From Pseudomonas phage BRkr, in the sequence record LC765218.1: a stretch of 64,000 nucleotides of DNA. One strand, 5' to 3'. Position 1 is the first letter of the stretch. Each line of letters begins with the position of its first letter. The position numbers were made by a program, and so were the translations under genes. A model generated the notes under the pieces. It was not told the DNA's origin. It saw only the letters and a program-made list of their open reading frames with translations, and searched no databases. Positions 2,011 to 63,947 of this stretch are shown piece after piece.

Positions 2011-2030
2011 GGAGTCCCTTAGGGGACTCC
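2011..2030 (+). terminator. Terminator hairpin GGAGTCCC-TTA-GGGGACTCC followed by CTTTATAACG
   Basis: Stem of 8-9 bp. Preceded by CAACATAAAC. Follows the stop of 1386-2000. Confidence 0.55.
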
Positions 2031-2058
2031 TTTATAACGAGGATATAAGGAATTTAGT

Positions 2059-2481
2059 ATGATCGAACCGGTGTCGTTTAAGGCCGATCCTAATAAAGCA
2101 CGTCGCCCTATTCTCGATAGTTACGCTCAAAAAATACAAGCTCAAAAAGGGCGTATGAATGTAGTAACTTACTGTGCCAATAACCCCGATAAGATGGTTA
2201 AGATACATCGCGACGGTAATAAATGGTATTGTTGTATTGAACGTGATGGCGTCGAAGTAATTGACAAAAATGAAATAATTGTCATGGGTCCCCCTGGATT
2301 CCCAGATACGATTCAATTACAGATTTCCAATGACCCTAATGATAAAGTACATTTCGTGGAAATTCATGATGGTCGTATTTGGGAAGCAATCAACGCTATC
2401 GGTGGCGGCTATACCCGAAAAAGGATTGAGTTGCCATTCGGACATCCTTTCTTAGACTTCCTTTTCGTGGAGTCCGATTGA
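2059..2481 (+). CDS. Hypothetical protein (moron-like, flanked by similar hairpins)
   Basis: 140-aa ORF with RBS AAGGA. The region is AT-richer than its neighbours. Near-identical palindromic hairpins flank it at 2011-2030 and 2499-2518. Confidence 0.55.
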   Translation: MIEPVSFKADPNKARRPILDSYAQKIQAQKGRMNVVTYCANNPDKMVKIHRDGNKWYCCIERDGVEVIDKNEIIVMGPPGFPDTIQLQISNDPNDKVHFVEIHDGRIWEAINAIGGGYTRKRIELPFGHPFLDFLFVESD

Positions 2482-2498
2482 GTCCAATGATGTAGTTA

Positions 2499-2541
2499 GC
2501 GGAGTCTTAGGACTCCGCATACTTTCCTATTATTTTTTTTT
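2499..2541 (+). terminator. Class-A intrinsic terminator (GCGGAGTC-TTAG-GACTCCGC + T9)
   Basis: 8-bp GC-rich stem with the T-run at 2531-2541. Follows gene 2059-2481. Confidence 0.7.
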
Positions 2542-2550
2542 GGAGTTGCC

Positions 2551-2955
2551 ATGACAGTCTCTCTCCCAACACTAGGTACTGATGGTTGGATTACCTCAAT
2601 GGAATCCAAAGCAGACTACATCATCTCTACTTTCCTTACAACAAATAGGTCCATGTCAACGTTACATAGGACACAAAATACTTCGCTTCAATATCTACTG
2701 AAGGAATATGCTAACGATATCCTTAATCTGGAAATTCAGCTTCGTGATGTACTAACAAATAAACTACGAACCGTGTTTGGTGAATCAGCTCAGGCTTTGG
2801 TTAGTATTGTTCCAGCGAGTCCAGATAATCCGGATGCATTCTCCATTCAGTTTACAGGTATAGTCACTGATGGTACTAAAGAGTATACAGTGGGTAAACT
2901 GGTTCAATTCCAAAATTCACACATTGTGAATATTGCTAATATCAACAACGGGTAA
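2551..2955 (+). CDS. Hypothetical protein
   Basis: 134-aa ORF. RBS GGAG lies 7 nt upstream. It follows the hairpin plus T9 terminator. Confidence 0.55.
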   Translation: MTVSLPTLGTDGWITSMESKADYIISTFLTTNRSMSTLHRTQNTSLQYLLKEYANDILNLEIQLRDVLTNKLRTVFGESAQALVSIVPASPDNPDAFSIQFTGIVTDGTKEYTVGKLVQFQNSHIVNIANINNG

Positions 2956-2959
2956 ATAT

Positions 2960-3550
2960 ATGTCGAATCTTGATTCTCAAATGGAAGAAGCACAGGTACT
3001 GGTCGATGGGGAATCAGATGTTAAATCTGCTCCTGACCTTAATGAAACAGATGCACTCATTCAACGAGTGGAACATCTTAATCGCACGGTAGAACGGCTG
3101 AGCGAAAGGCTTCATGTTTCTGAAAAGGCTATTAAACAAATTTTGGAAGCACTGACCCAATCGGAAGATCTACATGAACTCCGTGTCATTAAGATTCTCT
3201 CTAGTTTCTTTGGTGGGTTGAATAATAGCCTTCGTGAAAGTCTTGAGCATATGACTCAAGAAGTATCCACACGTCGTTATGGTTTTACTATTGAAGTTGT
3301 TGATGGTGTTAACGTAACGGCACACGAGAATAGTGTAATTGCAACCAAACGAGAAGATGGTGGTATTGATTTCGCATCTATTAATACCCCCGATCAAATC
3401 CAAAACCATGGAACCGAACCATTCGTTCAATACCTGAAGCAACATGATGAACTGTTTGAAGGTCAGAATGCAATCGTCATTAATATCCTTGCTTCTAAAG
3501 ATGCACTTGAAAAAGTACAAGGAGAATTGAATGAGCCAGTATCAAACTGA
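2960..3550 (+). CDS. Hypothetical coiled-coil protein
   Basis: The ORF track gives 2933, but an in-frame ATG at 2960 sits 5 nt after the upstream stop. Coiled-coil-like heptad sequence LNRTVERLSERLHVSEKAIKQILEAL. Confidence 0.55.
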   Translation: MSNLDSQMEEAQVLVDGESDVKSAPDLNETDALIQRVEHLNRTVERLSERLHVSEKAIKQILEALTQSEDLHELRVIKILSSFFGGLNNSLRESLEHMTQEVSTRRYGFTIEVVDGVNVTAHENSVIATKREDGGIDFASINTPDQIQNHGTEPFVQYLKQHDELFEGQNAIVINILASKDALEKVQGELNEPVSN

Positions 3551-4142
3551 TACAGCTGAAGAAATCCGCGCACGTCATGTAACGCGTGGAATCGATGATT
3601 GTCTGAATACAATCATCGCAAACGACGAGATGCAGTTGCCCATTATCCTGGAAGACAGGTTTGTGAAAGAGGTCTTACCCCTACTAGTAAGACCATGGGA
3701 TACTGATAACTTAACCCGTTATCGGAAATACGTACTAGAATTGACAAATCCTCTGCGTGTAGCTTCTAATGAAGCAGAGCCGAAGATTCTTTTTACGGTA
3801 CCAGCTTTGTATCCCAGGCCAGCTACCTCATGGGCAGCCGATGCTACAACTGCATCTATTTCACATGTAGTAGATTACATTGCTATTGAACGTGAACGGT
3901 CTCTGCAAGATCTTGAACCGTATATCACGGAATTCTTAAGTAGTGTATCTATTACTACAACCGTGGACAAAAGTGTTCTCATTCCTTTAGCTAACATCCT
4001 GGCGATGTACAACCGCACTTTCGAAGATGAAAGTGGGAATCCATTGTACACCCTCGCCGGGGGTGTTCCCGTTAAAGGGTCTAATGGTAGTGTACGTCAA
4101 CAGGCTGATACAAGCTCATTTGACGACGATTATGAAGACTGA
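3531..4142 (+). CDS. Hypothetical protein with acidic C-terminal tail (…SSFDDDYED)
   Basis: 203-aa ORF with RBS GGAGAA. The C-terminus is strongly acidic. It lies within a replication/recombination-looking module. Confidence 0.55.
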   Translation: MSQYQTDTAEEIRARHVTRGIDDCLNTIIANDEMQLPIILEDRFVKEVLPLLVRPWDTDNLTRYRKYVLELTNPLRVASNEAEPKILFTVPALYPRPATSWAADATTASISHVVDYIAIERERSLQDLEPYITEFLSSVSITTTVDKSVLIPLANILAMYNRTFEDESGNPLYTLAGGVPVKGSNGSVRQQADTSSFDDDYED

Positions 4143-5277
4143 TAAAACAAAGTTCCCCGGTACATTTCGATATATAAGCCTAGGTGATATTCACCTAGGT
4201 CATCGGACAACTCCTACCTCTCATATTCTGTTAAACTTAGATAAAGTTATTACAGATAAGATGTTAAAGGAACTCGATATGGTCATTATTACTGGTGACC
4301 TATTCGACCGACAGCTTAACTACGGTGATGAATCTGTACATCAGATAAACCGTTGGGCAACAACGTTCATGATGCGCTGCGCTGCAAATAACGTGATGCT
4401 CAGAATAGTTGAAGGTACACCTAGCCATGATAGGGAACAAACCCAGTTCTTTGTAGAGCAAAAAGTAAACGTAAATATTCCAGTCGATCTCCATTACTCT
4501 AAGACACTGTCAATTGAGTATATTGAGAAGCTCGATGCACATTTTCTTTATGTCCCAGATAAATGGCATCCATCAACAGCTGTTACTTTATCGCAGGTAA
4601 AAGAACAGATGGCTTCACTGGGCATAGAGAAGGTTGACTTTGCTATTATGCATGGTGCATTTAGTTATCAGCTACCTTCCATTGTAGAAGAACCAACTCA
4701 CGATGAAGAAGAATACTTAGCTTTAGTAAAACATCAGATCTTAATTGGTCATGTCCACAACATGACTATTAATGATAGAATTTACGCAGCTGGTTCTTTC
4801 GATCGAATCTGTCATGGCGATGAGATCGATAAAGGGTTGTTTCATTTTATCGTTCGTGAGGATGGTAATTTCACGGCGACATTTATAAAGAACAAGAATG
4901 CTAAGAAGTATGTTACTTTAGAAGTTCACGGTTATGATACTAAACAACTTCTTAATAAAGTAAAAGAAACCTTAGCAGAACTACCCAAGTATTCTGCTAT
5001 ACGACTGCGTTGTGACCCAATGGACGTAGCTAACGGCGATATCGAAACATTTCGAGTTGAGTATCCTAACTACGAATGGTCTGTCTTGGTGGAAAAAGCT
5101 ACTAAGAAAAAGAATAGTGTAGCGACAAGTCTAAAAGAATTTGACATGTCTAAGTTTATCGCTATTACACCAGAGACAATTAGTGATCTTCTTAAAGAAG
5201 AGATTTCAAAAGTCACTGATGATCAGACCATACAAGTCCGTTGTCTTGAAAGGTTGGCACAGTTCGTTAGGAATTAA
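4132..5277 (+). CDS. Mre11/SbcD-like calcineurin-fold metallophosphoesterase (DNA repair nuclease)
   Basis: Phosphoesterase motifs are present in order: GDIHLGH (D-x-H), ITGDLFDR (GD..D), EGTPSHDRE (GNHE-like), IMHGAF and LIGHVHNM (GHxH). The ORF track starts at 4027. The ATG at 4132 gives MKTDKTKF… immediately before motif I and overlaps the upstream stop (ATGA), so it is preferred. Confidence 0.75.
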   Translation: MKTDKTKFPGTFRYISLGDIHLGHRTTPTSHILLNLDKVITDKMLKELDMVIITGDLFDRQLNYGDESVHQINRWATTFMMRCAANNVMLRIVEGTPSHDREQTQFFVEQKVNVNIPVDLHYSKTLSIEYIEKLDAHFLYVPDKWHPSTAVTLSQVKEQMASLGIEKVDFAIMHGAFSYQLPSIVEEPTHDEEEYLALVKHQILIGHVHNMTINDRIYAAGSFDRICHGDEIDKGLFHFIVREDGNFTATFIKNKNAKKYVTLEVHGYDTKQLLNKVKETLAELPKYSAIRLRCDPMDVANGDIETFRVEYPNYEWSVLVEKATKKKNSVATSLKEFDMSKFIAITPETISDLLKEEISKVTDDQTIQVRCLERLAQFVRN

Positions 5278-5279
5278 AT

Positions 5280-6107
5280 ATGGAACTCATTGAAAGAGAT
5301 GTCGGACAGCTTCCAGTTAGTATCGGTACTTCTCTTGCCTTTGAGGGATTCTTAGGAATTCACCCGAATCAACCTAAGCATCCGATTGACGTTAAATCGG
5401 TAAAAGAGATATGGGTCAATCTTCGAACATTGGCCCGTAATCTTAATTCAGCTGTAGCTACGGATAAAGTCCATGGCATTAATCCAGCTGATGCTGTTAC
5501 AATCCTAATGCAGGAAATACAGACAATTCCGGTTGCACTGGGGCAACATGGATCGAAAGTCAAGGTGCGTTGGTATATCGCATCTAAAGACGCGGTCAAG
5601 TGGGAATACCCCAAGGCTATTTATAAAGAAGCCAAAACGCCAAAACAAATGGCATATGAAGTATACGAACGTTACGCGGCAATTGAACTTCTGCATCAAA
5701 TGAAAGATGCAGGAATAGAAGTGATGGAGATCGATAAAGCTCCAGTAAGGACCCAAGGTACGATCGCTTTGGTTACCCATTTTCCACATGAGCTATTGTG
5801 GAAACAATATTTCGATCGTCTTCTTTTGTTGGAATCCCACACTGGGAAAATAAAACCGTACAACTTGTGGTACACCAAGCTTAACGGCATAAAAGAGGAT
5901 ACGCCCATCCCATTCACTAAATTCACTCTACAAGTGTTTGGCGATAGCGTTGTTTTCGATGCACAACCAAAAGCTATTAAGGCCCAACTGAAACAGTTAG
6001 CTGCTTCGAGACGTTGGTCGCCTGTAACTACACAAGACAAAATCTATCATGACATTACAACTCATGGCAGTAAAGAACTTAAAGAATGTTACGCGCTATT
6101 ACGCTGA
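5280..6107 (+). CDS. Hypothetical protein (co-transcribed with nuclease)
   Basis: 275-aa ORF starting 3 nt after the nuclease stop. No motif recognised. Confidence 0.55.
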   Translation: MELIERDVGQLPVSIGTSLAFEGFLGIHPNQPKHPIDVKSVKEIWVNLRTLARNLNSAVATDKVHGINPADAVTILMQEIQTIPVALGQHGSKVKVRWYIASKDAVKWEYPKAIYKEAKTPKQMAYEVYERYAAIELLHQMKDAGIEVMEIDKAPVRTQGTIALVTHFPHELLWKQYFDRLLLLESHTGKIKPYNLWYTKLNGIKEDTPIPFTKFTLQVFGDSVVFDAQPKAIKAQLKQLAASRRWSPVTTQDKIYHDITTHGSKELKECYALLR

Positions 6108-6192
6108 TTAGAAAGAATACTCTTCATCGATATAGTACGTAGAAACACTTTCGCGAAGTGTAAAAAATTAATCCAATTGGAGCTAACACATC

Positions 6193-6939
6193 ATGTCTCA
6201 ACAATCCCAAGGCCCTGCCCTCTCTCCGTTCTCTGTAATGTCCACTTGGCTACATGCTGATCCGGTAGAAGGTTCTCAGAAACGTCCTAACCTGCGTTTC
6301 GGTGTCTTTGGTAACGTACCTCGCCTGACCGTACGTACTAACGTTCAAGGTGATCTGAATAACGGTAAGATTGAATTCAAAACTGACCTGGCTACTTTTG
6401 CAGCTGCAATGAAGTATGCACGGGATCTTGTCGATGGTAAAGATGTTCCTCAAGAACGTAAGTTTGTTCACCAAGATGACTTTGTTGGCGGTAAAAAGAT
6501 CGATAAGATCATTCCGATCACCACACTGGTAATCGGCCGCGAACAGAACTCTGGTCGTATTTACATTGCTCTTATCTCTTCTCAGCAACAGCGCCCGCGT
6601 ATTCGGTTCTTCTTCGGTCCGTCGAAATATCACACCATCCTGAATGGTGATGGTTCCCCCATCTCTCCGAAAGAGATGTCCGAAGCTTACGCTACCGGTT
6701 TCCTGGAACCGGCCACTGCAATCATTTACCAGATGATGGTAAGCAGTTTTGACCAGAACGCTAAGAACGTAGCCAACCCAGCTAACTTTGGTAACGGTGG
6801 CGGCGGTGGTCAACGTCAAGGTGGCTATAATGGCGGCAACCGTGGTGGTAATAGCGGTGGTGCTCCTCAAGGTTACAATCGTCCGTCCTCCGGTGGTTTC
6901 CAGGACAATGGCTTTGACGATTCCATTCCTGACTTCTAA
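6193..6939 (+). CDS. Putative single-stranded DNA-binding protein (SSB-like: Gly-rich linker + acidic DDSIPDF tail)
   Basis: The C-terminal ~70 aa are Gly/Asn/Gln-rich (GNGGGGGQRQGGYNGGNRGGNSGG). The protein ends DDSIPDF, closely resembling the bacterial SSB disordered linker and the DDDIPF acidic tip. RBS GGAG. The N-terminal domain is not recognisably an OB-fold by eye. Confidence 0.5.
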   Translation: MSQQSQGPALSPFSVMSTWLHADPVEGSQKRPNLRFGVFGNVPRLTVRTNVQGDLNNGKIEFKTDLATFAAAMKYARDLVDGKDVPQERKFVHQDDFVGGKKIDKIIPITTLVIGREQNSGRIYIALISSQQQRPRIRFFFGPSKYHTILNGDGSPISPKEMSEAYATGFLEPATAIIYQMMVSSFDQNAKNVANPANFGNGGGGGQRQGGYNGGNRGGNSGGAPQGYNRPSSGGFQDNGFDDSIPDF

Positions 6940-6947
6940 ATAAATCT

Positions 6948-6982
6948 ACAGCATCTCTTTGGTAAACACCGAGAGATGCTGT
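6948..6982 (+). terminator. Terminator hairpin (11-bp stem ACAGCATCTCT / AGAGATGCTGT) followed by ATGCCCTCTATTTCC
   Basis: Lies immediately after the SSB-like gene and before early promoter 1. Confidence 0.6.
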
Positions 6983-7020
6983 ATGCCCTCTATTTCCTGA
7001 CATTAAAAAATATCTCAGAT

Positions 7021-7036
7021 CTATATTACAACTGTG
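7021..7036 (+). promoter_or_regulatory. phiKZ-type early promoter, copy 1 (cTATATTACAACTGTG)
   Basis: One of four near-identical copies of cTATATTACAAnTGTGaATA. Each lies 39-47 nt upstream of a start codon and just downstream of a terminator. TATATTAC matches the early-promoter core reported for phiKZ-like virion RNAP. Confidence 0.65.
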
Positions 7037-7061
7037 CATCACCAGAACTAAAGAGGTATAA

Positions 7062-8639
7062 ATGCGCATCGACGTTACTGGGGTACAAGGCAACGGCTTT
7101 GTGGAAGTAACCACTAGCCATAAAGGAAACGAAATCAAGTGGAGTACAAGGGCTTATAGCAAAGTAAAACTCAATGATCCAACTCGTGTTTTCAAGGAAT
7201 TTAATGATTACCTAGAAAGCTGCGATGAGGCTGATCAAGATCGTATCTGGAACAGCTATGTCAAAATCAACGATCTGTTCAAGATGGACTTCGAACCGGC
7301 GCACATCTCCAGTACGCTGATCCATTACATCCATGAACTGTACTCAGCTCTGCCAATGAACAAACTCCGTCGTTGGCTGTTGACTATTGGTAATCTGCAT
7401 ATTCCACCAGAGATCCAGAAAACGATCACTGATGAATCGCGCTACACCAAGCGTGAGCAGACTTATCTTCAACATGACTACATCAACCTCGCTACTGTGG
7501 CACTTGGTCTTCGACCGATGGTTCCGATTTGGGGAGAATACATTGATTCGGGTACGGATCAAGAACTCCACAAAGAAAACGAAGTTGTTGGTTTGATTAG
7601 CCGTTGTGAAATTGCTAACTGGCCGCTACTTGAAAAAGATGAAGTGGGTGAAGATGTAGATACTGCATTTGACAAACTGGAAGGGTACGTCAAATTCTGC
7701 GTTGAAGATGAACCGACTACTTTGGGTAGCCTTTGGCGTGGTATGAGTTCAGTTGAAATTCCAGTACATCTTCGTTCGAAGGTTCTGGTTCGCCGACTGA
7801 CAATCGTTCCTCTGAACGATCCAATGTCCCACTCTATCGTAGCTAACACGTTCCGTTACGTACGTAGCAATCTCAATCCTGCCGAGCGTAGTCCAACTGA
7901 TCGCGTTAATGAAAAGCGTCCAGAAGGCGGCGGTGGTGACGACGAAGATAAAACTTCGTTTATTGAGGCACACAAGACGAAAGGTCGAGTTAGCCCAGGT
8001 GACATTGAGGCATACAACATCGATGCGATGGATTATGAGCTACTGGCACAAACGGTAGATCCTACTATCGACATGGAGAAACTGAGAAAATGTATTAGTT
8101 GCGTGAGTCAGGTCGCGAACTTTGAGATCCGTCCTCACCAAGTACTACTGGCACAATGGGTAATGGCAAAAGCTTTCCCGGCGCGTGCTTTCTATCATAT
8201 CTCCAAACTGCCAGTCAATACACTGTTGGCAACTACCCAGGCTCTACTGTGGCATTGGGGTTACCTTGATGTAGCTGTGTTCCTACAAGTCGAACCTGTT
8301 TATCACGGTGAACATGGATCGACTAATCAGCTTAGTAATACCCGAAGTGGTTCGAGAATTGCTCAGAAGTATAAGGCACAGCTCGATGAACTCTATCCGC
8401 ATATGAAACTCGCTAAGGTCCCCCAATCGGGAGAGATTCCTAAGCCAGATAACATGGCGGGTATTGCAGTGAATAACTGTAACCAGTCCATCCGCTCCTC
8501 TACTTGGATCTATCATGGTCCACCTGAGCTGTTCAAGCTTTCTGGACAGATTGCTCAGAACAACATTCTGATTCCACCTCCAAATATCAAGCACACGATC
8601 ACCGAAGTGGTTCTACACCTCGCTCAGATCAACCAGTAA
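7062..8639 (+). CDS. Early-expressed large protein, function unknown
   Basis: 525-aa ORF 40 nt downstream of early-promoter copy 1. RBS AAGAGG. Confidence 0.6.
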   Translation: MRIDVTGVQGNGFVEVTTSHKGNEIKWSTRAYSKVKLNDPTRVFKEFNDYLESCDEADQDRIWNSYVKINDLFKMDFEPAHISSTLIHYIHELYSALPMNKLRRWLLTIGNLHIPPEIQKTITDESRYTKREQTYLQHDYINLATVALGLRPMVPIWGEYIDSGTDQELHKENEVVGLISRCEIANWPLLEKDEVGEDVDTAFDKLEGYVKFCVEDEPTTLGSLWRGMSSVEIPVHLRSKVLVRRLTIVPLNDPMSHSIVANTFRYVRSNLNPAERSPTDRVNEKRPEGGGGDDEDKTSFIEAHKTKGRVSPGDIEAYNIDAMDYELLAQTVDPTIDMEKLRKCISCVSQVANFEIRPHQVLLAQWVMAKAFPARAFYHISKLPVNTLLATTQALLWHWGYLDVAVFLQVEPVYHGEHGSTNQLSNTRSGSRIAQKYKAQLDELYPHMKLAKVPQSGEIPKPDNMAGIAVNNCNQSIRSSTWIYHGPPELFKLSGQIAQNNILIPPPNIKHTITEVVLHLAQINQ

Positions 8640-8658
8640 AATTCAAGAGGTAAATTAC

Positions 8659-18401: not shown

Positions 18402-18404
18402 AGC

Positions 18405-18424
18405 CTATATTACAACTGTGAATA
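18405..18424 (+). promoter_or_regulatory. phiKZ-type early promoter, copy 2 (CTATATTACAACTGTGAATA)
   Basis: Identical over 16 nt to copy 1. Lies 42 nt upstream of the first gene of a cluster of six tiny membrane-protein genes. Confidence 0.65.
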
Positions 18425-18448
18425 TACACCCACATAAAGGACAATGTA

Positions 18449-18658
18449 ATGGCTATTATCACCAATGTATTTGCTTTCGCTATCATCACTCTGTTCATCG
18501 TCTTTTTCCTGAAACAGGGACTTGCGGTCATGGGTGTCAAAACGAACCACCTGCCGATTAAACTGGCTAAAGCTTTCAATGCATCTGGTCCTTTGGCAGC
18601 AATCCTTCTTGCCGTATACTTGATCATGGCAACCTTTTATAACATCTTTCTGAGTTGA
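18449..18658 (+). CDS. Small membrane protein (early)
   Basis: 69-aa ORF 44 nt downstream of early-promoter copy 2. Two hydrophobic helices. RBS AAAGGA. Confidence 0.55.
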   Translation: MAIITNVFAFAIITLFIVFFLKQGLAVMGVKTNHLPIKLAKAFNASGPLAAILLAVYLIMATFYNIFLS

Positions 18659-18662
18659 TACC

Positions 18663-18851
18663 ATGGGATGGATTGTACTGATACTCACCTTCTTCGCTTC
18701 TCTTACGGTTGGAGGTGTAATGACTTTCTATGGCTTGGTAGCTAGCAGTAAAACCTTTTCAGATAGAATCTCTATGGTTCTATTTGGTGTAGTTATTATT
18801 GCTATCACCGGCTATAGTGGATATCATTTATTCGACATGCTTCCAAAATAG
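18663..18851 (+). CDS. Small membrane protein (early)
   Basis: 62-aa ORF with two hydrophobic helices, 4 nt after the previous stop. Confidence 0.5.
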   Translation: MGWIVLILTFFASLTVGGVMTFYGLVASSKTFSDRISMVLFGVVIIAITGYSGYHLFDMLPK

Positions 18852-18859
18852 GAGTTAAC

Positions 18860-19120
18860 ATGGATTTGATGTTTACTAACCCAATAGCGTTTATTTACGG
18901 GACACTTAGCCTTCCTGGACTATTGATCATGACTGGCTATGCTGTATCGTGGTTGTTCGTAATGGGTGTATGCAAGTGGCTTCCTAATTGGAAGTACCTC
19001 TGCATGTTCCTCTGCGTCAGTTGGGCAATTAGCTTTGCGATTTATCTAGTAATGATCATTACGGCCCTGGTTAGCGTGTATACCCCTCTCCAGTTACCGC
19101 CGTGGACGCTCATGAACTAA
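18860..19120 (+). CDS. Small membrane protein (early)
   Basis: 86-aa ORF with RBS AGGAG and hydrophobic helices. Confidence 0.5.
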   Translation: MDLMFTNPIAFIYGTLSLPGLLIMTGYAVSWLFVMGVCKWLPNWKYLCMFLCVSWAISFAIYLVMIITALVSVYTPLQLPPWTLMN

Positions 19121-19133
19121 CAAGGAGTTAATC

Positions 19134-19373
19134 ATGGAAACCATCATGCTGATCTGGTGGATCTCTATTTCGATTATCGCTGGGTCCCTGTTCGTAGCAA
19201 AACTGGTAAAAGATAACGATGATGTTCGTCGAACTCGTTTACCAAAGAAAGATATCATCATGCTCGACCGCATTAATATGATTTGCACTGCTCTCATATG
19301 GGGAGCTGCTATCGTAGCGCTGATCACTCTCTTCTTGGGTGGTCTTTTCATGATGATTGAAGCACAAGTGTAA
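19134..19373 (+). CDS. Small membrane protein (early)
   Basis: 79-aa ORF with RBS AAGGAG and two TM helices. Followed by the bidirectional terminator. Confidence 0.5.
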   Translation: METIMLIWWISISIIAGSLFVAKLVKDNDDVRRTRLPKKDIIMLDRINMICTALIWGAAIVALITLFLGGLFMMIEAQV

Positions 19374-19383
19374 GACGGCATAA

Positions 19384-19427
19384 AGCTCCTACCTTCGGGT
19401 AGGAGCTATGCTTTATTTTTTTTTATT
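19384..19427. terminator. Bidirectional terminator (AGCTCCTACC-TTCG-GGTAGGAGCT). T-run on + side, CTTTATGCCGTC on minus side
   Basis: 10-bp stem with a UUCG loop. Lies between + gene 19134-19373 and minus gene 19423-19845. Confidence 0.7.
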
Positions 19428-19845
19428 TTAATCCAAGATCTTTCTCGATTTGTCTAGCTTGCGATGTACTTTGAATAGCCTTCGACTCTGCAAGTTCAAT
19501 CATGAACAAACAATCATTAAAGGGTAGTTCAAAGAACTCTAGTAAAGATAAACCATAAATGTCATTGATCTTGTAATTGACAAACTTCCGTATCCAAGTT
19601 CTTTCAGGTCCACCTTCTACGACGTTTTCCTTAGGATGCATTCTAACCAGATCTAAAGGATCAGCCTCTGGTGAATCATGATCGAAAATACCGTAGTCTT
19701 TATGGTAGGCCTTCCTGGTCAACATTTCGGCAATAGCTGGCCTTACGGCATCTAGCGTTCGCACGAGTTCATCGAATGCACTCTTACCATTAACAGTCTT
19801 GCGACCGAAAGAGTTCATTGTAACGTGCCCGTTGTCGTCCTCCAA
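19423..19845 (-). CDS. Hypothetical protein
   Basis: 140-aa minus-strand ORF. The ORF-track start is a TTG, and an internal ATG (MNSFGRK…) is an alternative. The stop lies in the T-run of the bidirectional terminator. Confidence 0.5.
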   Translation of the reverse strand: MEDDNGHVTMNSFGRKTVNGKSAFDELVRTLDAVRPAIAEMLTRKAYHKDYGIFDHDSPEADPLDLVRMHPKENVVEGGPERTWIRKFVNYKINDIYGLSLLEFFELPFNDCLFMIELAESKAIQSTSQARQIEKDLGLK

Positions 19846-19883
19846 ATTAATTGTTAGACGACTATGCCGGGGGTCCTCGTTGA

Positions 19884-21485
19884 TTACTCCAGGTGCTTGG
19901 CTTTCTGGCCCGCCAACGTGAAAAATATTGCCATCATGTCTAGCGGTACAAGGTGCGGGAAACGTTCGTTGAATGCTTGGCCCTGAGGACCTTTACATTC
20001 TTTGCAGTTATGCGATGGAAGAGCTACCACAGCCAGTACACAAGAGTTAGTATACTCATGTACGGTATCAAAGAACTGCTCCGCGTACTGCGGATCACTC
20101 AGAGTGTTCGCCAGATAATCACTAATGATTTCCTGATCGTCGGAAAGCAGTTGATCTTCGAAGTCTTCTACATCGTCGTCCTTTTCATAGATACCATCTA
20201 CCCAATGAGCATACTGCATGGCGATAGTAGCTTTACTCAGTTTATCAATGTACGCTGAACGTTGAACACCATGTGGCGGTTCGTTAAATGTACCTTGAGA
20301 CATTTCGATCAATGTCTGAGACCACTGAGAAGCAGCCATCTTACGTTGAGCGATAGTCGGGATAGCAAGACGAACACCAATATCACCAAACCAGAATACT
20401 TTCTTACCGCCAATACCGAAACCTTCACGGTAAGCTTTGAAGTCTTCATCCGTAGCAGGTGCAAATTTCTTAGCGATAAATTTACGCTGATCATTACTGA
20501 ATACAGTGTTGTCAAACCAAACGATAGACGACATGTTAAGTTTTGCAGTGATACGAGCCGTACAGTTGTCCGGGTCTGCAATACATGGAACGTCGTAGTT
20601 GAATCCATCAATGTACATTGTAGAAGCTAGGGCATGATGCAGGATAGCTTCATCAAAGATCGATAGTTCATGTTCCAGGTCACTTGGAGTAATGAAGGAC
20701 TTGTTCGATGCAATAACACAAGACAGAGCCAGGTCAGTCATCGCGTTCATCATTACGGAACCAGCGTTAGAGAACGACATACCTTTGGTTTGCATTCCCA
20801 GCCGTAGCTTGATCTGCTGCATTTCTGTTTGCAATGCGACTACTTCAGTAAGTGTCGGAGCACGCAGGCGAAGCCAGATACCCGAACGAGGCATAAACGT
20901 TTCGTATGTCGCACCAAGACCAGATTTCTTGGAGAGGTATGCCAACAGTTCTTCTTTACTGTGTCGTTTATTACGATCGATCTTTTGAGAAGGGCGGCCT
21001 GGTCGAATAAGGTTACCGTTATCATGACCAGTAATACCTTGTTGCCATACAGAACCTTCACGTTCCGTCCCACCGATAGGAGTGGGGTCAAGGTTAGTAT
21101 GGTTCATACCAGCTACTAGAGAAATCAACCAATCTCGGTCACTGCTAGTAGTAGTGAGATCACCTTGGTGCATTCCATTCAATAGCGCCGAGTGACGTTC
21201 CAATACCTGGTTAAAGGTCTTGGGGTTTTCTAGAATGAAACTCATCAAAGAGGTCATACCAGGAATAGCTTCACTAGAACAAGAACGTGTCTCAGTGAAG
21301 TTAACTGGTTTCTGGTCAATTACCAGAGGAGGTAGTTCAGCAGCAGGCGAAGAAGATACTTCTTCCGCAGGTGCGTCCGGTAGAGTGGGACCCGTGGGCC
21401 CCTGTTCTACTTCTGCATCAGCTTGCTGTTCCCAATTACCCTCAGCAGGATAATTGTCTTCTTTATCCATATCAAGCTCTTGCAT
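19884..21485 (-). CDS. Hypothetical large protein with acidic N-terminus
   Basis: 533-aa ORF. On the minus strand the RBS TAAGGTAATACAAAATG is 11 nt downstream of the previous gene's stop. Antisense ORFs 19953-20258 and 20262-20630 on the + strand are rejected. Confidence 0.65.
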   Translation of the reverse strand: MQELDMDKEDNYPAEGNWEQQADAEVEQGPTGPTLPDAPAEEVSSSPAAELPPLVIDQKPVNFTETRSCSSEAIPGMTSLMSFILENPKTFNQVLERHSALLNGMHQGDLTTTSSDRDWLISLVAGMNHTNLDPTPIGGTEREGSVWQQGITGHDNGNLIRPGRPSQKIDRNKRHSKEELLAYLSKKSGLGATYETFMPRSGIWLRLRAPTLTEVVALQTEMQQIKLRLGMQTKGMSFSNAGSVMMNAMTDLALSCVIASNKSFITPSDLEHELSIFDEAILHHALASTMYIDGFNYDVPCIADPDNCTARITAKLNMSSIVWFDNTVFSNDQRKFIAKKFAPATDEDFKAYREGFGIGGKKVFWFGDIGVRLAIPTIAQRKMAASQWSQTLIEMSQGTFNEPPHGVQRSAYIDKLSKATIAMQYAHWVDGIYEKDDDVEDFEDQLLSDDQEIISDYLANTLSDPQYAEQFFDTVHEYTNSCVLAVVALPSHNCKECKGPQGQAFNERFPHLVPLDMMAIFFTLAGQKAKHLE

Positions 21486-25919: not shown

Positions 25920-25965
25920 TTTATGCCGGCAATGGTATAGGTTTTAAGAAAGAACAGGATTACAT

Positions 25966-40945: not shown

Positions 40946-40965
40946 GGGGAACCACACGGTTCCCC
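40946..40965 (+). terminator. Class-B terminator GGGGAACC-ACAC-GGTTCCCC + TTTATGCTATGTTATC
   Basis: Perfect 8-bp stem, preceded by GACATATT. Lies 37 nt upstream of gene 41005. Confidence 0.65.
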
Positions 40966-41004
40966 TTTATGCTATGTTATCTATTCACATGTCAGAGAAT
41001 CGAA

Positions 41005-43664: not shown

Positions 43665-43682
43665 GGGGAGCTTCGGCTCCCT
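43665..43682 (+). terminator. Class-B terminator GGGGAGC-TTCG-GCTCCC(T) + TTTATGCTATG
   Basis: UUCG loop. Lies between paralog genes. Confidence 0.6.
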
Positions 43683-43718
43683 TTATGCTATGTAAACTAA
43701 TTCTATTTCGAGGCTAAC

Positions 43719-44988: not shown

Positions 44989-45006
44989 GCCCTCCCTATG
45001 GAGGGC
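44989..45006 (+). terminator. Class-B terminator GCCCTC-CCTATG-GAGGGC + TTTATGACTGCTATGCC (preceded by AACATAAAT)
   Basis: 6-bp GC stem. Lies between paralog genes. Confidence 0.55.
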
Positions 45007-45055
45007 TTTATGACTGCTATGCCAAATTCTATGTTTAACATAACGAGAAATCAAA

Positions 45056-47716: not shown

Positions 47717-47740
47717 GACGGGGCTCTTCGGAGTCCCGTC
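47717..47740 (+). terminator. Class-B terminator GACGGGGCTC-TTCG-GAGTCCCGTC + TTATGTTCAGGAG (preceded by AGACATA)
   Basis: 10-bp stem with one G-U pair. UUCG loop. Confidence 0.65.
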
Positions 47741-47759
47741 TTATGTTCAGGAGTTAACA

Positions 47760-51523: not shown

Positions 51524-51546
51524 GCCCTGCCCTAAAAAGGCAGGGC
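51524..51546 (+). terminator. Class-B terminator GCCCTGCC-CTAAAAA-GGCAGGGC + TTTATGCCGGATCTTATG (preceded by AACAACATATT)
   Basis: Perfect 8-bp stem. Confidence 0.65.
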
Positions 51547-51588
51547 TTTATGCCGGATCTTATGATCTTAAACCATGAGGTGGTTACC

Positions 51589-55223: not shown

Positions 55224-56608
55224 TGTCTGTCGATAGTACGCTTTTAATGCGTGAAGTCGAACAGGTTACCGAAATTGGTGAAAGCTATTCTAACTTCCGC
55301 AATGAGATTAAAATCCTTGCTAATAAAAAGTGGATTACTCCTGTACGTCTTGATTTTCTTTATTTGAATAGAGACTACGGGAGTGGTCAACTTGGTGATA
55401 TCAGAGAGGTTCAGTTCTTAATTGGTTATGGTGACTATGTCCATGATATCGTCCCTTATCGCGATAACCTACAAGTCGATGTATCTGAGATACCTCTACT
55501 GGAAGCAGTAGCTACACGTAACGTCGAACGGAAAGCAGTTACCAAACGTTACCGAGGGATTATTTCCGTTAGTGGTGACGATAACCCGGCCTTGTCAGGA
55601 AAGAACTCTAATCTTAAATCCAGAGAAGCGATGAACCAGATCGGATTGATAAGCGTACAGATGCAACTTGTGGATGAACTGACGTATAAACTGATGATGG
55701 TAACTTGTGGCACTACATATCGAGTTACGACCACAATGAATGCTCTTAAATCACTGTGGACGCAATTTGGGCAATTAGTGGGAGGCTCGGATAGCCAAAG
55801 ATTACTTGCCATCGATATCGCAGATGGATATAGTCAAGAAGAACGTAATCAGATTATCATCCCAGATGGAATGCCTTTGAAAGACGTTCATCGATTCTTC
55901 CAAGATAAAGAAGGAGGAATCTATTCTACGGGTATTGGACGTTATATACAAAATCAGGTTTTATTCTTGTATCCTCTTTACGATACAACTCGTTATGGAA
56001 AGAATACAAAAGTGCTAAACTTGATCAACGTTCCTAATGATCGGTACCAGGGTGCCGAGAAGACGTTTAGAAACACGATGCGCCATATCACAGTGTTAGC
56101 CACTGGCGATGCGACTTCACTTGACCAAGGACTCGCCGAGCAACTTCAGAATGGTAACTCTTTCCGATTTGGGGATGCTCGTAAAGTATTCCAAGACTTT
56201 GCAATTGACAAAGACAACAAAATGTTAGTTGATAGGGCTACTAACTTGTTCGAAGTCAAGATGAAGGATTTGGAAACAGGATTCAATAACGTTCGCTGGG
56301 CAAAAGATAGATTGACATCTAACCCTTTCAAGCAATATACGGATATGGCTAGAAAGCAAGGACAAGAGATCAAATTGGAATGGACACATGGTAATCCTGA
56401 TTTACTCTATCCGGGGATGCCTGTTAAATTTCAGACAATATCTGATAACCGAGTGAAAACATACCACGGCGTGTTATTAGGTGTAAACGAACAACGTAGA
56501 TCAGCTGACGCTGGGGCCACAGTCAATCGCCACGTCGGTAAAGTCACATTGGGCGTTTTCATTAATCGCTTCGAAGTAACAGAAGACGGTATAGAGCCCA
56601 CCCCGTAA
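55223..56608 (+). CDS. Hypothetical (probable virion) protein
   Basis: 461-aa ORF whose start overlaps the upstream stop (TAATG). A terminator hairpin encloses its stop codon. Confidence 0.6.
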   Translation: MSVDSTLLMREVEQVTEIGESYSNFRNEIKILANKKWITPVRLDFLYLNRDYGSGQLGDIREVQFLIGYGDYVHDIVPYRDNLQVDVSEIPLLEAVATRNVERKAVTKRYRGIISVSGDDNPALSGKNSNLKSREAMNQIGLISVQMQLVDELTYKLMMVTCGTTYRVTTTMNALKSLWTQFGQLVGGSDSQRLLAIDIADGYSQEERNQIIIPDGMPLKDVHRFFQDKEGGIYSTGIGRYIQNQVLFLYPLYDTTRYGKNTKVLNLINVPNDRYQGAEKTFRNTMRHITVLATGDATSLDQGLAEQLQNGNSFRFGDARKVFQDFAIDKDNKMLVDRATNLFEVKMKDLETGFNNVRWAKDRLTSNPFKQYTDMARKQGQEIKLEWTHGNPDLLYPGMPVKFQTISDNRVKTYHGVLLGVNEQRRSADAGATVNRHVGKVTLGVFINRFEVTEDGIEPTP

Positions 56609-56628
56609 TTGGGGTGGGTTTTTATTTA
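56596..56628 (+). terminator. Class-A terminator GCCCACCCC-GTAAT-TGGGGTGGG + TTTTTATTT
   Basis: The stop codon of 55223-56608 lies in the loop. U-run follows. Confidence 0.65.
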
Positions 56629-56639
56629 GGTAGGACCAT

Positions 56640-57950: not shown

Positions 57951-57973
57951 AGCCCTGGTCTTCGATCAGGGCT
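57951..57973 (+). terminator. Class-B terminator AGCCCTGGTC-TTCG-ATCAGGGCT + TTATGTCGTG
   Basis: UUCG-containing loop. Follows the macro-domain gene. Confidence 0.55.
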
Positions 57974-58012
57974 TTATGTCGTGTCAAACCAAACCCAAAA
58001 GGAAATTGAAAA

Positions 58013-58467: not shown

Positions 58468-58486
58468 CTATATTACAAGTGTGATA
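58468..58486 (+). promoter_or_regulatory. phiKZ-type early promoter, copy 3 (CTATATTACAAGTGTGATA)
   Basis: Consensus match. Lies 43 nt upstream of micro-ORF 58513. Confidence 0.6.
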
Positions 58487-59566: not shown

Positions 59567-59594
59567 AAGGGCTCTTCGGAGCCCTTTCTTTTTA
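59567..59594 (+). terminator. Class-A terminator AAGGGCTC-TTCG-GAGCCCTT + TCTTTTTAT
   Basis: UUCG tetraloop plus U-run, just before early promoter 4. Confidence 0.7.
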
Positions 59595-59629
59595 TCATAT
59601 TCGAATGTACATTTAAGTCTTTTTAAAAC

Positions 59630-59651
59630 GTATATTACAAATGTGATAATA
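59630..59651 (+). promoter_or_regulatory. phiKZ-type early promoter, copy 4 (GTATATTACAAATGTGATAATA)
   Basis: Consensus match. Lies 47 nt upstream of micro-ORF 59678 and just after terminator 59567-59594. Confidence 0.6.
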
Positions 59652-61873: not shown

Positions 61874-61900
61874 AGATGGGTCTCTTCGGAGACCCCATCT
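61874..61900 (+). terminator. Terminator hairpin AGATGGGTCTC-TTCG-GAGACCCCATCT
   Basis: 11-bp stem with one bulge. UUCG loop. Follows gene 61270-61872. Confidence 0.55.
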
Positions 61901-61967
61901 CAATGTGTCTTGGAAAGGATGCATTGAGATGTACTCAACTAAACCCAAATGTAAAAAGGAAATTACC

Positions 61968-63095
61968 ATGAAACAATATCGCGAACCCACCACCCGGCTG
62001 ACCAAAGAAAAACTGGAATGGGTTATCGAACGTCGCAAGGAACGTAAAGCCGAGAGCCCCTTCGGCCGCGCTCATTTCCCTGCTGGTACCCGTGCAATCT
62101 TCGAGTCCTGTTCTCTCCGTTTCCTGGACGAAAATGAACGCGTGTATCCCGGTCAGCGTTATGAAACCTTCGAAGCTACCGTTCTTGGTATCGTGGCCAA
62201 TGGTCATGACAGCTATGTCGCTGTTCTGGATAAACCCTGCAACTTGATCGAAGGACGCAAGTACAGCATCAACATTAGCTGGTGTAAAAAGATCCTCGAA
62301 CGTGGCGAAGGTAACTTCACCTGGTTCAAAGAAGAACCGACTGAGTACGATCGTGCGCATGGTTGGAACATCCGTGAGAAACATCCGACTGTTCGTTGGG
62401 TAGAAGGTCCTCGCCCTACTAAGGTTCGCAACCTGACCTGGGCTGAGGAGTTCGACTACCATCGTCATACCGATCCGGTCTACGTCGAGATTAACAAACA
62501 CCACAACCAGTACTTCATCACTGACATGCGTACGTTCGTGATGTTCGCTCTCCAAGAGCATCCTGCATATACCAACCCTTCGAAGGATCATCTGTACGAT
62601 CTGGAGAAACTGGTAGCAGCGATGTATGCTGATCCGACTATCAAGGCAGCTGAAGTAAAACTGTCTCGTTATTTCGGTAGCTGGTTGATCAGCAAGAAGA
62701 AGTTCCATAAAGTCCTGCAACGCCTGCTGCCGTTCTACAAGACTTCTCGTCGTAAGGCGCAGGAAGAAGATAACAAAGCAATGTCCGAAATGTACGAAAA
62801 AGAAATGGAACGTGACTTCGATGAAATGTATGGAGAGTCTTCGGATTCTTCTGATGAATCGTGCTACTCCATGGAAGACTCGTACTACGACTCTGGTTTG
62901 GATGACGACATCGATATGATTAACATGAATGACATGTTCGAAGACTCGGCATGTTCTCGTGAAATCAGTGATGACGTTCAACCCAAAACCATCGGTGAAC
63001 TCCTGCGTGAAGCAATGGAAGAACCCGACGAAGATAAATCCAAACTGGTTATCAGCAGCATGGAAACTCTCTCGGAAGCGGTTGTTATCAAATAA
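61968..63095 (+). CDS. Hypothetical protein with Ser/Asp/Glu-rich acidic C-terminal tail
   Basis: Start at ATG 61968 (MKQYREPTTRL) with RBS AAAAGGAA 7 nt upstream; the ORF track's 61905 is a GTG. The C-terminal ~90 aa are highly acidic (ESSDSSDESCYSMEDSYYDSGLDDDIDMINMNDMFEDS…). GC-richer than surroundings. Confidence 0.55.
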   Translation: MKQYREPTTRLTKEKLEWVIERRKERKAESPFGRAHFPAGTRAIFESCSLRFLDENERVYPGQRYETFEATVLGIVANGHDSYVAVLDKPCNLIEGRKYSINISWCKKILERGEGNFTWFKEEPTEYDRAHGWNIREKHPTVRWVEGPRPTKVRNLTWAEEFDYHRHTDPVYVEINKHHNQYFITDMRTFVMFALQEHPAYTNPSKDHLYDLEKLVAAMYADPTIKAAEVKLSRYFGSWLISKKKFHKVLQRLLPFYKTSRRKAQEEDNKAMSEMYEKEMERDFDEMYGESSDSSDESCYSMEDSYYDSGLDDDIDMINMNDMFEDSACSREISDDVQPKTIGELLREAMEEPDEDKSKLVISSMETLSEAVVIK

Positions 63096-63128
63096 TTCGT
63101 TCCTAAGAACTTTCAATAAGGAATAGGC

Positions 63129-63269
63129 ATGCTCTGGAAAATCACGTGTTACAATGGTACTGTCTGGGAGGCTCCCTCTCAAATGGGAATCGAAGAGGCA
63201 CTTCAAAAGTTCTATCGTGACACTGAATTGTCGCAGTGGGATATTGTCAAAATAGAAAACATGCATTAA
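63129..63269 (+). CDS. Micro-protein (46 aa)
   Basis: Found by manual translation. RBS AAGGAATAGG upstream. MLWKITCYNGTVWEAPSQMGIEEALQKFYRDTELSQWDIVKIENMH. Confidence 0.35.
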   Translation: MLWKITCYNGTVWEAPSQMGIEEALQKFYRDTELSQWDIVKIENMH

Positions 63270-63278
63270 GGAGTAATT

Positions 63279-63911
63279 ATGGACGTCGTTCAAGCAGTTC
63301 TGGTAATGGTTGCCCTTAAAGAACAGGCCGTCAAAGGCGTTGTTCGCGTTGCATTGACTCACCCCCGTGCAGCTAACTGGGTAAAGGTCGAAGATCGACT
63401 GATTCCTGACTATACTTCCAAGATCACTCACATCGAAGTTCCGCTTCACGATGTGCTGATCATGGGTAATGTCAATGCCGGTGGCAAATACGAACGCTGC
63501 GTCATGCGTAACAATGCAAACTGGTATGATATCATCATCCTGAAAAACGGTGTACCGACTGTGGAAGGTTGGATGCATCAGCGCAATACGGCGGACATGA
63601 CTGTCCAGTCCATGGGTACTGTAGCAGAGTGGTCCAAACCCGCTACTGCTGCCATGCCTAATCCGACCAAGATCTTCTTCCATCTGGTAACTGTAATGGA
63701 TACCAATGGTCGTGTCTGGGCGGTGGTGATCGAAGCTCGTGGCATTCCGGTAACTCAGGAAAACGTGAAAGATAAACTGGCCATGGGTATGTTCTTCGAG
63801 AGTGAAGAACATGCCCGTGAGTACATCAGCGATCGAGTAATGTTCTTCAGTGAGGTCTCTCCGACCAAACCGAAATGCAATGCATTGACCTATGCTCATG
63901 TAGCTGCGTGA
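63279..63911 (+). CDS. Hypothetical protein (early region)
   Basis: 210-aa ORF with RBS TAAGGAG 7 nt upstream. Followed by the class-A terminator 63916-63947. Confidence 0.55.
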   Translation: MDVVQAVLVMVALKEQAVKGVVRVALTHPRAANWVKVEDRLIPDYTSKITHIEVPLHDVLIMGNVNAGGKYERCVMRNNANWYDIIILKNGVPTVEGWMHQRNTADMTVQSMGTVAEWSKPATAAMPNPTKIFFHLVTVMDTNGRVWAVVIEARGIPVTQENVKDKLAMGMFFESEEHAREYISDRVMFFSEVSPTKPKCNALTYAHVAA

Positions 63912-63915
63912 TAAC

Positions 63916-63947
63916 AGGGGACCTTCGGGTCCCCTTTTTTATTTTTT
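63916..63947 (+). terminator. Class-A terminator AGGGGACC-TTCG-GGTCCCCT + T6AT6 then ATGTCGTAA
   Basis: Perfect 8-bp stem with UUCG loop and a long U-run. Confidence 0.75.

Follow-up and report, generated by a model that had tools for sequence, protein, structure and literature searches.

Hairpins with a conserved TTTATG-YYG tail at gene ends of the jumbo Pseudomonas phage BRkr: probable transcription terminators of the phiKZ type

The window analyzed here, a stretch of 64,000 nt from Pseudomonas phage BRkr (sequence record LC765218.1), harbors a series of GC-rich hairpins located just behind stop codons and followed by a short tail of conserved sequence, TTTATG-YYG. These elements probably serve to terminate transcription in a jumbo phage of the phiKZ-like, nucleus-forming kind, the tail being a part of the termination signal. 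As judged from their sequence, the hairpins with this tail belong to the phiKZ-type terminator motif, which was already published in 2024 and is encountered here in a third genus. This reading is built on the anatomy of the elements, the statistics of their occurrence, their strand asymmetry, and their orthology to mapped phiKZ sites, all of them observed directly in the present analysis.

The affiliation of the phage is documented by its close relatives. A 12-kb piece of the window shows 99.5–99.6% identity to the Pseudomonas phages phiHQ, PA1C, phiLBG22, HHBS36_1, and PS119XW (six records) and 82% identity to HPP-Temi; all these relatives are ~300-kb phages, and PS119XW and HPP-Temi are placed in the genus Pawinskivirus. 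The whole window aligned to PS119XW at ~43.9–107.8 kb with 99.5% identity, and the gene names (gp numbers) used below are those of the PS119XW gene map carried over by this alignment. The genome of PS119XW is annotated with a nuclear shell protein and PhuZ tubulin. The window itself encodes gp069, a beta-like subunit of RNA polymerase (RNAP; Pfam PF00562, an RNAP beta domain and the sole Pfam match among eight large window proteins), and a beta'-like RNAP subunit with the catalytic NADFDGD motif; in the annotation of HPP-Temi, three orthologues of window genes are named RNA polymerase beta subunits. The gene order of the window is syntenic with that of phiKZ. Since the shell protein and PhuZ occur together with beta-like and beta'-like RNAP subunits, the window can be assigned to a phiKZ-like, nucleus-forming Pseudomonas jumbo phage possessing its own multisubunit RNAPs. 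The earlier note on this DNA had guessed at a phiKZ-like jumbo phage, and the identity to PS119XW, the shell protein and PhuZ, and the RNAP subunits bear it out.

In the same note, ~20 GC-rich hairpins after stop codons had been reported and divided into a class A with a canonical U-run and a class B with a conserved CTTTATG-type tail. All the sites named there are present, at coordinates that are exact or off by 1–2 nt, and their approximate number holds for the window; the stems of the listed sites comprise 6–10 bp, including 5–8 G-C pairs, with loops of 3–7 nt. The enrichment of CTTTATG near hairpins, proposed there as a check, is pronounced: the window contains 24 copies of this heptamer vs. 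9.1 expected, and at least 10 of the 24 directly adjoin a GC-rich hairpin on its 3' side vs. 0.06 expected under independence (Poisson p = 2e-19). The latter count was obtained with an explicit hairpin finder, the strict scan of which passes over 11599(-) with its mismatch in the stem. Hairpins with a C-TTCG-G loop and a stem of at least 5 bp, of which at least nine had been claimed, indeed number nine (17780, 19393, 38940, 43671, 47726, 59574, 61884, 62839, and 63923). All of them belong to the + strand, which carries most of the genes, and none to the - strand; seven are intergenic and two are intragenic. The intragenic ones, at 38940 (gp096) and 62839 (gp126), lie on the sense strand and feature stems of 6 and 8 bp, respectively. 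Rfam covariance models gave no match in the window at gathering thresholds.

The anatomy of the elements was resolved by a genome-wide scan of both strands of PS119XW (396 annotated features, all coding sequences translating cleanly). This genome comprises 122 intergenic GC-rich hairpins, which provide 138 sense readings, i.e., readings of a hairpin in the direction of the gene ending just upstream. The consensus of the sense-strand tail in the 138 readings is TTTATG-YY-GT, and the 5' side often carries its mirror, ACRRCATAAA. TATG starts exactly 2 nt past the stem in 58 of 138 sense readings, with TT between the stem and TATG in 40; TCGT, TTGT, or CCGT directly follows TATG in 32/73, and G takes position 6 in 46 of the 64 tails of the T2-4AT form. 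Read in antisense, TATG remains enriched (42/106), unlike TTT and YYGT. The elements are also tied to gene ends, with 83 of 114 hairpins starting 5–11 nt past the stop codon. The conserved “GC dinucleotide” of the earlier note is better described as YYG(T).

The tail does not depend on a gene lying ahead. Convergent intergenic elements number 18 genome-wide (four of them in the window), and TATG tails are present in 30/36 convergent readings vs. 43/102 co-directional ones. In the gene map of the window, the minus-strand tails at 11599, 19385, and 27244, as well as both tails of 32954/32972, have no same-strand gene downstream, just as had been stated. Together with the position of the phiKZ RNA 3' ends inside the same tail (see below), these proportions uphold the view that the tail belongs to the termination signal itself. 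Between convergent genes, the stop codon is positioned exactly 9 nt before the hairpin in 13/32 readings, which results in the order TAA-CRR-CATAAA-hairpin, and the paired stop codons form the outermost arms of the palindrome (e.g., at 11576–11599 and 19362–19385 of the window). The genes gp067 and gp078 share an identical terminal 18-mer, GTGTAAGACGGCATAAAG.

Another regularity is related to the strand. Among the 102 co-directional hairpins, cUUCGg is found on the sense strand in 43 cases and its complement on the sense strand in one. A DNA palindrome would show no such bias; therefore, the 43:1 ratio indicates that the elements are selected as RNA on the coding strand. The stems vary among the sites and are swapped wholesale at orthologous sites (19384 and 27244 in HPP-Temi; 51524 in phiKZ), with the CATA...TATG flanks remaining fixed. 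Between co-directional genes, tail and 5' arm are complementary only about half the time, and the mismatches at positions 7–8 are A-C, not G-U; by this half-time matching and the A-C mismatches, pairing with the 5' arm was ruled out as the cause of tail conservation. The origin of YYGT as a by-product of the stop codon of the opposite gene (GTTA being the complement of TAAC) was likewise discarded, because YYG persists at co-directional sites. Neither the symmetric CATA...TATG framing nor the 43:1 sense bias of cUUCGg is mentioned in the available portions of the phiKZ and 201phi2-1 papers.

The experimental counterpart of these elements comes from phiKZ, where 133 termination regions were mapped by cappable sequencing on the Oxford Nanopore Technologies platform (ONT-cappable-seq; Putzeys et al. 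2024, microLife, PMC10914365). A motif derived from 61 of the mapped terminators reads BCCYCCCCHWWDGGGRRGGBYTTATKYYGT, and ARNold predicted ordinary intrinsic terminators at its sites (PMC10914365). Among the six P. aeruginosa phages in that study, the motif was reported for phiKZ only (PMC10914365), and thus it follows the lineage of the phage, not that of the host. Phage 201phi2-1 has a motif A (n = 59) that “strongly resembles” the one of phiKZ, with a motif B occurring alongside it and extending the stem (PMC11512511). The elements of the window share with the phiKZ and 201phi2-1 motif a GC-rich hairpin followed at once by YTTATKYYGT a few nt past stop codons, the bidirectional copies between convergent genes, and the stem-lengthening upstream arm corresponding to motif B of 201phi2-1, along with the nucleus-forming lineage equipped with virion and non-virion RNAPs (vRNAP and nvRNAP). 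They differ in that they reside in the genus Pawinskivirus, their stems are mostly different, and they are known from sequence alone.

The match is quantitative as well. With up to three mismatches allowed, the full 30-nt phiKZ consensus finds two places in the window, 25900 and 27234(-), each with 3 mismatches, and none in 100 shuffles; its 3' half, GGBYTTATKYYG, finds six exact matches vs. 0.4 expected. Our own scan of 40 kb of phiKZ revealed the same hairpin architecture and flanks. The start and termination sites of phiKZ come from the supplementary tables of the bioRxiv preprint by Putzeys et al.; ~119 start sites and 23 motif-bearing termination entries were covered. In these 23 entries, the 3' end is called 1–9 nt past the stem, mostly at ~4–9 nt and typically after ...UAUG(Y). 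The elements at 47717 and 51524 are direct orthologues of the mapped phiKZ terminators T044 and T046, respectively, and the 3' end of T046 lies 8 nt past the stem.

Collectively, a predicted terminator unit of BRkr is arranged in the following order: the stop codon; within 5–11 nt, often, (A)ACRRCATAWW; a GC-rich hairpin of 6–10 bp, frequently capped with cUUCGg; and the sense tail TTTATG-YY-G(T). The hairpin would form in the nascent RNA while the polymerase is sitting on a weak rU/rA-rich hybrid, CUUUAUGY, and the transcript would be released ~4–9 nt, most often 7–8 nt, past the stem, assuming the same release position in BRkr. Termination would then be of the intrinsic type, with a short tract of conserved sequence substituting for the U-tract. 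The 5' arm CATAWW would render the element bidirectional, being complete between convergent genes and optional elsewhere. If the next gene is late, a separate TATG(+1) promoter would follow 5–20 nt beyond the tail, the tail TATG not serving as a start site. The U-run tails of class A are probably variants of the same tail family that have a longer T-run and are found somewhat more often where early units end. Since the development of phiKZ is reported to be independent of the host RNAP (PMC11512511; PMC10612078), it is presumably the multisubunit polymerases of the phage that stop at these sites during infection.

Two suppositions of the earlier note about the nature of the signal fared less well. 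It had been called non-canonical, yet the phiKZ equivalents are classified as ordinary intrinsic terminators by ARNold. It had also been considered as specific for one of the phage RNAPs. Eight terminators of 201phi2-1 were placed in a two-reporter construct in uninfected host cells, where four exceeded lambda T0 and two equaled it (PMC11512511); therefore, the host polymerase responds to the signal, too.

Several points weigh against the terminator interpretation. The experimental support at the level of RNA 3' and 5' ends is, as far as this analysis goes, drawn entirely from phiKZ and 201phi2-1. The 3' ends determined by ONT do not distinguish termination from trimming back to a stable hairpin, their precision is a few nt, and the phiKZ table was read from machine-converted PDF text. 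In the searchable literature, assays of termination by vRNAP or nvRNAP in vitro were not found. In 50 kb of Goslar, a nucleus-forming phage of E. coli, few hairpins of this kind and no clear motif were seen; thus, the motif is not universal among phages with these polymerases. Finally, a simple weak-hybrid model does not explain why tail position 6 favors G rather than T, why a conserved YYG follows it, or why TATG keeps a fixed distance of 2 nt to the stem.

These unexplained features invite two additions to the model. Bacterial RNAP pauses at elemental pause sites in the context Y(-1)G(+1), and YYG at tail positions 7–9 may supply such a context. A more far-reaching thought, put forward tentatively and considered improbable on balance, is that the beta-lobe of the elongating nvRNAP (gp123-like) re-binds the non-template TATG 2 nt past the hairpin, so that the terminator borrows a contact of the promoter core. 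The polymerase would then pause with the RNA 3' end at ...UUUAU/G, and a tract of three U would suffice for release. If true, the re-binding would account for the G and for the fixed offset of 2 nt; it would also explain why the tail is conserved in three genera and, possibly, why the motif is weaker in units that the virion RNAP transcribes.

Early-type promoters, needed below for telling early units from the others, were recognized by the motif TATATTAC, which is annotated as the early promoter in the table of phiKZ transcription start sites (TSS). The window contains four copies of this vRNAP-type promoter-like motif on the + strand, at 7022–7029 (40 nt before the start codon of gp065), 18406–18413, 58469–58476, and 59631–59638, all in AT-rich contexts ~40–47 nt upstream of start codons; PS119XW contains 21 intergenic copies on the + strand, most of them 34–57 nt before a start codon. 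Two subtypes of the context can be discerned, ...TTTAAAGGC-TATATTAC-AAATGTGA and ...AAAAATATNTCAGATC-TATATTAC. The set of early units was composed of the first hairpin downstream of each early-type promoter (18 hairpins) and compared with 97 other gene-end hairpins. The strict form T2-4ATGYYG occurs in 0/18 early-unit hairpins vs. 24/97 others, TATGYYG in 2/18 vs. 37/97 (Fisher p = 0.03), and a T4 run in 9/18 vs. 20/97 (p = 0.016).

The most conspicuous alternative stems from the identity of the tail TATG with the late promoter of phiKZ: T(-3)ATG(+1) is the sole consensus of the nvRNAP late promoter, all four of its bases are required (PMC7598289), and the beta-like subunit gp123 recognizes them in the non-template strand (PMC12809450). 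Hence the idea that the tail TATG is itself such a promoter and the element a terminator–promoter cassette restarting transcription at the tail G. The tail does contain the complete known consensus, the phiKZ promoter p119L is conserved in PS119XW as CCTATGTAGACAC (...TATATTCCTATGTAGACAC; no hairpin upstream, likewise in phiKZ), and each late structural gene in the window is preceded by such an element 32–44 nt before its start codon. However, the tail is conserved best where no same-strand gene comes next, as the convergent and co-directional proportions testify, the next start codon follows the hairpin at distances varying between 3 and 519 nt, and the variants at 17773 and 2011 lack the G, in place of which the published consensus has K. 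TATGs found upstream of genes without a hairpin are often followed by TA (16/64) but those of the tails by YYG, and none of the ~119 covered phiKZ start sites falls on a tail TATG. By the convergent statistics, the variable spacing, and the start-site table, the tail was ruled out as a late promoter, which leaves the cassette very improbable. The two signals share an identical tetranucleotide and differ in their starts, the bases that follow, and the presence of tails where there is no gene to transcribe. The phiKZ starts located next to terminators use a second TATG, 5 nt (P049, ...GGGTTCCCTTATGCTATG), 8 nt (P075, ...GGCTTTATAATGCTATG), or 21 nt (P054, ...CCCTTTTATGCTGTTAGACCATGATCTTATG) downstream. 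A second TATG, as GCTATG or TCTTATG, also occurs 5–20 nt past the tails in the array of internal-head-protein genes of the window (40971–40976, 43687–43692, 45016–45021, and 51558–51564). By homology with the mapped P049 and P054, these are likely the late promoters of gp099, gp100, gp101, and gp105. Because a separate late-promoter TATG lies downstream of the terminator tail, the “CTTTATGCTATG” listed earlier as a tail variant (40965, 43681) is to be viewed as a composite of the tail with an overlapping GCTATG promoter, as in P049 and P075 of phiKZ.

The remaining alternatives accept the hairpin but assign it another role. As signals of RNA processing or stability, the elements would acquire their 3' ends by endonucleolytic cleavage in the AU-rich tail or exonuclease trimming down to the hyperstable UUCG hairpin, and not by release of the polymerase; termination and processing look equal in ONT 3' ends, a cUUCGg hairpin is a classic means of protecting 3' ends, the phiKZ ends, as mapped, are scattered 1–9 nt past the stem, and the phage has genes for a ribonuclease and an RNA ligase. 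Still, this is quite improbable, given that six of the eight 201phi2-1 terminators are at least as strong as lambda T0 in uninfected host cells (PMC11512511), that independent phiKZ promoters stand immediately downstream, as expected for a real end of transcription, and that a hairpin with a T-rich proximal tail has the geometry of an intrinsic terminator, with which ARNold agrees. Extremely improbable is an action at the level of DNA, with the palindromes serving as cruciforms, as sites for dimeric proteins, or as signals for recombination or packaging. In its favor, ACRRCATAAA...TTTATGYYGT is conserved in sequence in both arms, perfect palindromes are found between convergent genes, and SbcCD-like palindrome nucleases are encoded by the phage. 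On the other hand, only the sense strand features TTT and YYG, co-directional elements may do without the 5' arm, all these units keep close to stop codons, transcripts of phiKZ have 3' ends mapped at the equivalent sites, and the 43:1 strand asymmetry of the UUCG loop was taken to rule out a DNA-level palindrome. Finally, the hairpins could fall into two mechanistic classes, the U-run ones stopping the virion RNAP in early units and the TTTATG-YYG ones stopping the non-virion RNAP in middle and late units. The three early-unit comparisons given above point in this direction, as do the clean U-run sites 56597, 59567, and 63916, located in a small-gene region with early-type promoters. Yet the class A tails of these sites (TTTTTATTTAGG, TCTTTTTATCAT, and TTTTTTATTTTTT, respectively) also contain T(n)AT, including TTTTTAT, so classes A and B grade into each other, and TATG is found no more than 3 nt from the stem in 7/18 early-unit terminators. 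The comparisons are of exploratory character, with uncorrected p-values and the temporal class deduced from the promoter motif only; in T034 of phiKZ, the 3' end is mapped at the proximal TTAT and not in the T10 run, which is more distal; and some T-runs represent AT-rich DNA upstream of the next early promoter or the A-tract of an opposite-strand terminator. A division of labor between two mechanisms is, therefore, regarded as unlikely. What stands of the two stage-related classes is a modest association of T-rich tails with early units (p ~0.02–0.03); the discrete classes give way to a continuum, T(2-5)-A-T-(G/T/A).

Considered as terminators, the elements display both common and peculiar traits. 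With canonical intrinsic terminators, they share the GC-rich hairpin, the T-rich proximal segment, the A-rich 5' arm of bidirectional copies, the 3' ends ~7–8 nt past the stem (in phiKZ), and the response of the host RNAP (in 201phi2-1 reporters). In contrast, their U-tract consists of three U, then A-U-G, then the conserved YYG; the class B tails, such as TTTATGCC with its 4 T, fall below the rule of five T in eight; and it is the very sequence of the tail, beyond its composition, that is conserved across three phage genera. A canonical-terminator consensus scan of positions 1–20000 listed no TTTATG-YYG tail on its own strand (3–4 T in the first 8 nt), and a U-tract of ~7–9 nt, mostly U, was recognized by inspection at 56597, 59567, and 63916. 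Short conserved sequences marking the stop of a virus-encoded polymerase are also known from the class II signal of T7 RNAP, ATCTGTT, and the early signal of vaccinia, UUUUUNU. Both operate independently of a hairpin, and the vaccinia signal needs, in addition, a factor reading the RNA; unlike them, the elements described here always include a hairpin.

Overall, the elements amount to a ready map of predicted terminators and late promoters for phages of the PA1C/PS119XW type, which serve research on the phage nucleus and are under consideration for therapeutic use; they also add a third genus to those sharing the phiKZ terminator grammar. What remains of interest is the tail with its sequence specificity, the same TATG being the whole consensus of the nvRNAP promoter. 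Recombinant phiKZ nvRNAP and structures of its promoter complexes exist (PMC7618050, PMC12809450); hence, this specificity is directly testable in vitro.

The predicted terminators described first are situated on the + strand. The one after gp085 (25900–25929) comprises the hairpin 25900–25919 (GCCCTCCC-ttca-GGGAGGGC) and the tail TTTATGCCGG (25920–25929); it is conserved in HPP-Temi, where the tail reads TTATG. The same tail, TTTATGCCGG, closes the element after gp104 (51524–51556; hairpin 51524–51546), the orthologue of phiKZ gp097|gp098, in which the stem is wholly different and the flanks AACATA...TTTATGC are conserved. The predicted core of the late nvRNAP promoter beyond it, TCTTATG, would direct initiation at G51564, 25 nt ahead of the gp105 start codon; GATCTTATGATCTTAAAC is identical in the window and phiKZ, where TSS P054 (101390) is located exactly on the G. 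The element after gp102 (47717–47748) consists of GACGGGGCTC-ttcg-GAGTCCCGTC and the tail TTATGTTC, i.e., of the TTATG form; its stem and tail are identical to those of phiKZ gp095|gp096, the site of the mapped termination site T044 (97650).

In the element after gp098 (40946–40976; hairpin 40946–40965), the tail TTTATG overlaps the predicted late promoter, with the start expected at G40976; this arrangement is that of phiKZ P049, CTTATGCTATG, where the TSS is mapped at the second G, and it is also conserved in HPP-Temi. The element after gp099 (43666–43692; GGGAGC-ttcg-GCTCCC, tail TTTATG) likewise extends into a predicted late promoter. After gp100 (44989–45021), the hairpin 44989–45006 is followed by the tail TTTATGACTG and a possible late promoter; in HPP-Temi, the tail is conserved but the second GCTATG is not. 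The element after gp112 (57952–57982) has the hairpin GCCCTGGTC-ttc-GATCAGGGC and the tail TTTATGTCGT.

Tail variants among the window sites are TTTATACCGT, TTATGTTC, and TTTATGCTATG. The first of them follows the cUUCGg-loop hairpin after gp072 (17774–17801, +). This site, listed earlier under class B, reads TTTATACCG, the G being absent; at the orthologous site of HPP-Temi, the tail is TTTATGCC. The G is missing also from the tail TTTATAACG of the element after gp057 (2011–2039, +; hairpin GGAGTCCC-ttag-GGGACTCC), the minus side of which reads GTTTATGTTG.

Predicted bidirectional terminators separate convergent genes. Between gp092(+) and gp093(-), the element 32944–32982 with the hairpin 32954–32972 carries the + tail TTTATGTCGT and the - tail TTTATGTTGT; it does form the perfect palindrome claimed for it, the extent of which is corrected to 32947–32979 with 14-bp arms. 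In HPP-Temi, bases of its loop and arms are altered and CATA...TATG is retained. The element between gp078(+) and gp079(-) (19375–19423; hairpin 19385–19406, cUUCGg on the + strand) carries the - tail TTTATGCCGT (19384–19375) and the + tail TATGCTTTATTTTTTTTT; its stem is wholly swapped in HPP-Temi (GCCCTCTCC..GGAGAGGGC) and its flanks are kept. An identical - tail, TTTATGCCGT (11598–11589), is found between gp067(+) and gp068(-) (11589–11640; hairpin 11599–11622), together with the + tail TGTTGCTTTAAAATTTT. The predicted terminator of gp087(-) (27234–27263, - strand; hairpin 27244–27263) has the - tail TTTATGCCGT, too, and its + side, at the end of gp086, reads AATATGTTGT; in HPP-Temi, the stem is exchanged for GCCCGGCC..GCCGGGC and the flanks are unaltered.

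Predicted U-run terminators of the + strand are situated after gp108 (56597–56630; CCCACCCC-gtaatt-GGGGTGGG followed by TTTTTATTTAGG, conserved in HPP-Temi), gp118 (59567–59598; cUUCGg loop, tail TCTTTTTATCAT), and gp128 (63916–63947; cUUCGg loop, tail TTTTTTATTTTTTAT); the one after gp118 closes the unit begun at the early-type promoter 58469. The + strand hairpin after gp058 (2499–2545), formerly regarded as canonical class A, has a T-run that starts 17 nt past the stem, so it belongs clearly to neither class. Neither kind of tail is present at 61878, 16196, and 24405. The first of these is the cUUCGg hairpin after gp125 (61878–61895, +), which has no TTAT tail or U-run and is directly followed by a second long hairpin. 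This second, near-perfect hairpin (61896–61931, upstream of gp126) and a similar one at 6947–6985, just upstream of the early-type promoter before gp065, also have neither a TTAT tail nor a U-run.

Comparison with the relatives revealed several differences of another kind. The beta'-like RNAP gene of the window (1–1365) is a single unbroken open reading frame (...APNADFDGDQLNLTLMPDNY...) with the catalytic motif at ~1140–1165. In PS119XW, the gene is annotated as gp055 and gp056, being split directly after NADFDGD by an insertion of ~368 bp, which Rfam identifies as a group I intron (locus L001 892–1197; RF00028, 75.7 bits, E = 1.6e-19). Since the frame is unbroken in the window, BRkr carries the intron-less allele. 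A further mobile-element polymorphism within the genus concerns the DNA-polymerase-like gp088 (27273–29581), the orthologue of which in HPP-Temi (locus L008 14549–18579) is in pieces, with an HNH endonuclease gene between them. In gp075 (18449–18663), a one-base difference from PS119XW in a T-run near the 3' end alters the last residue and adds six codons (...ATFYNIFLS*); it either reflects a real polymorphism or goes back to an error in sequencing the homopolymer for one of the records.

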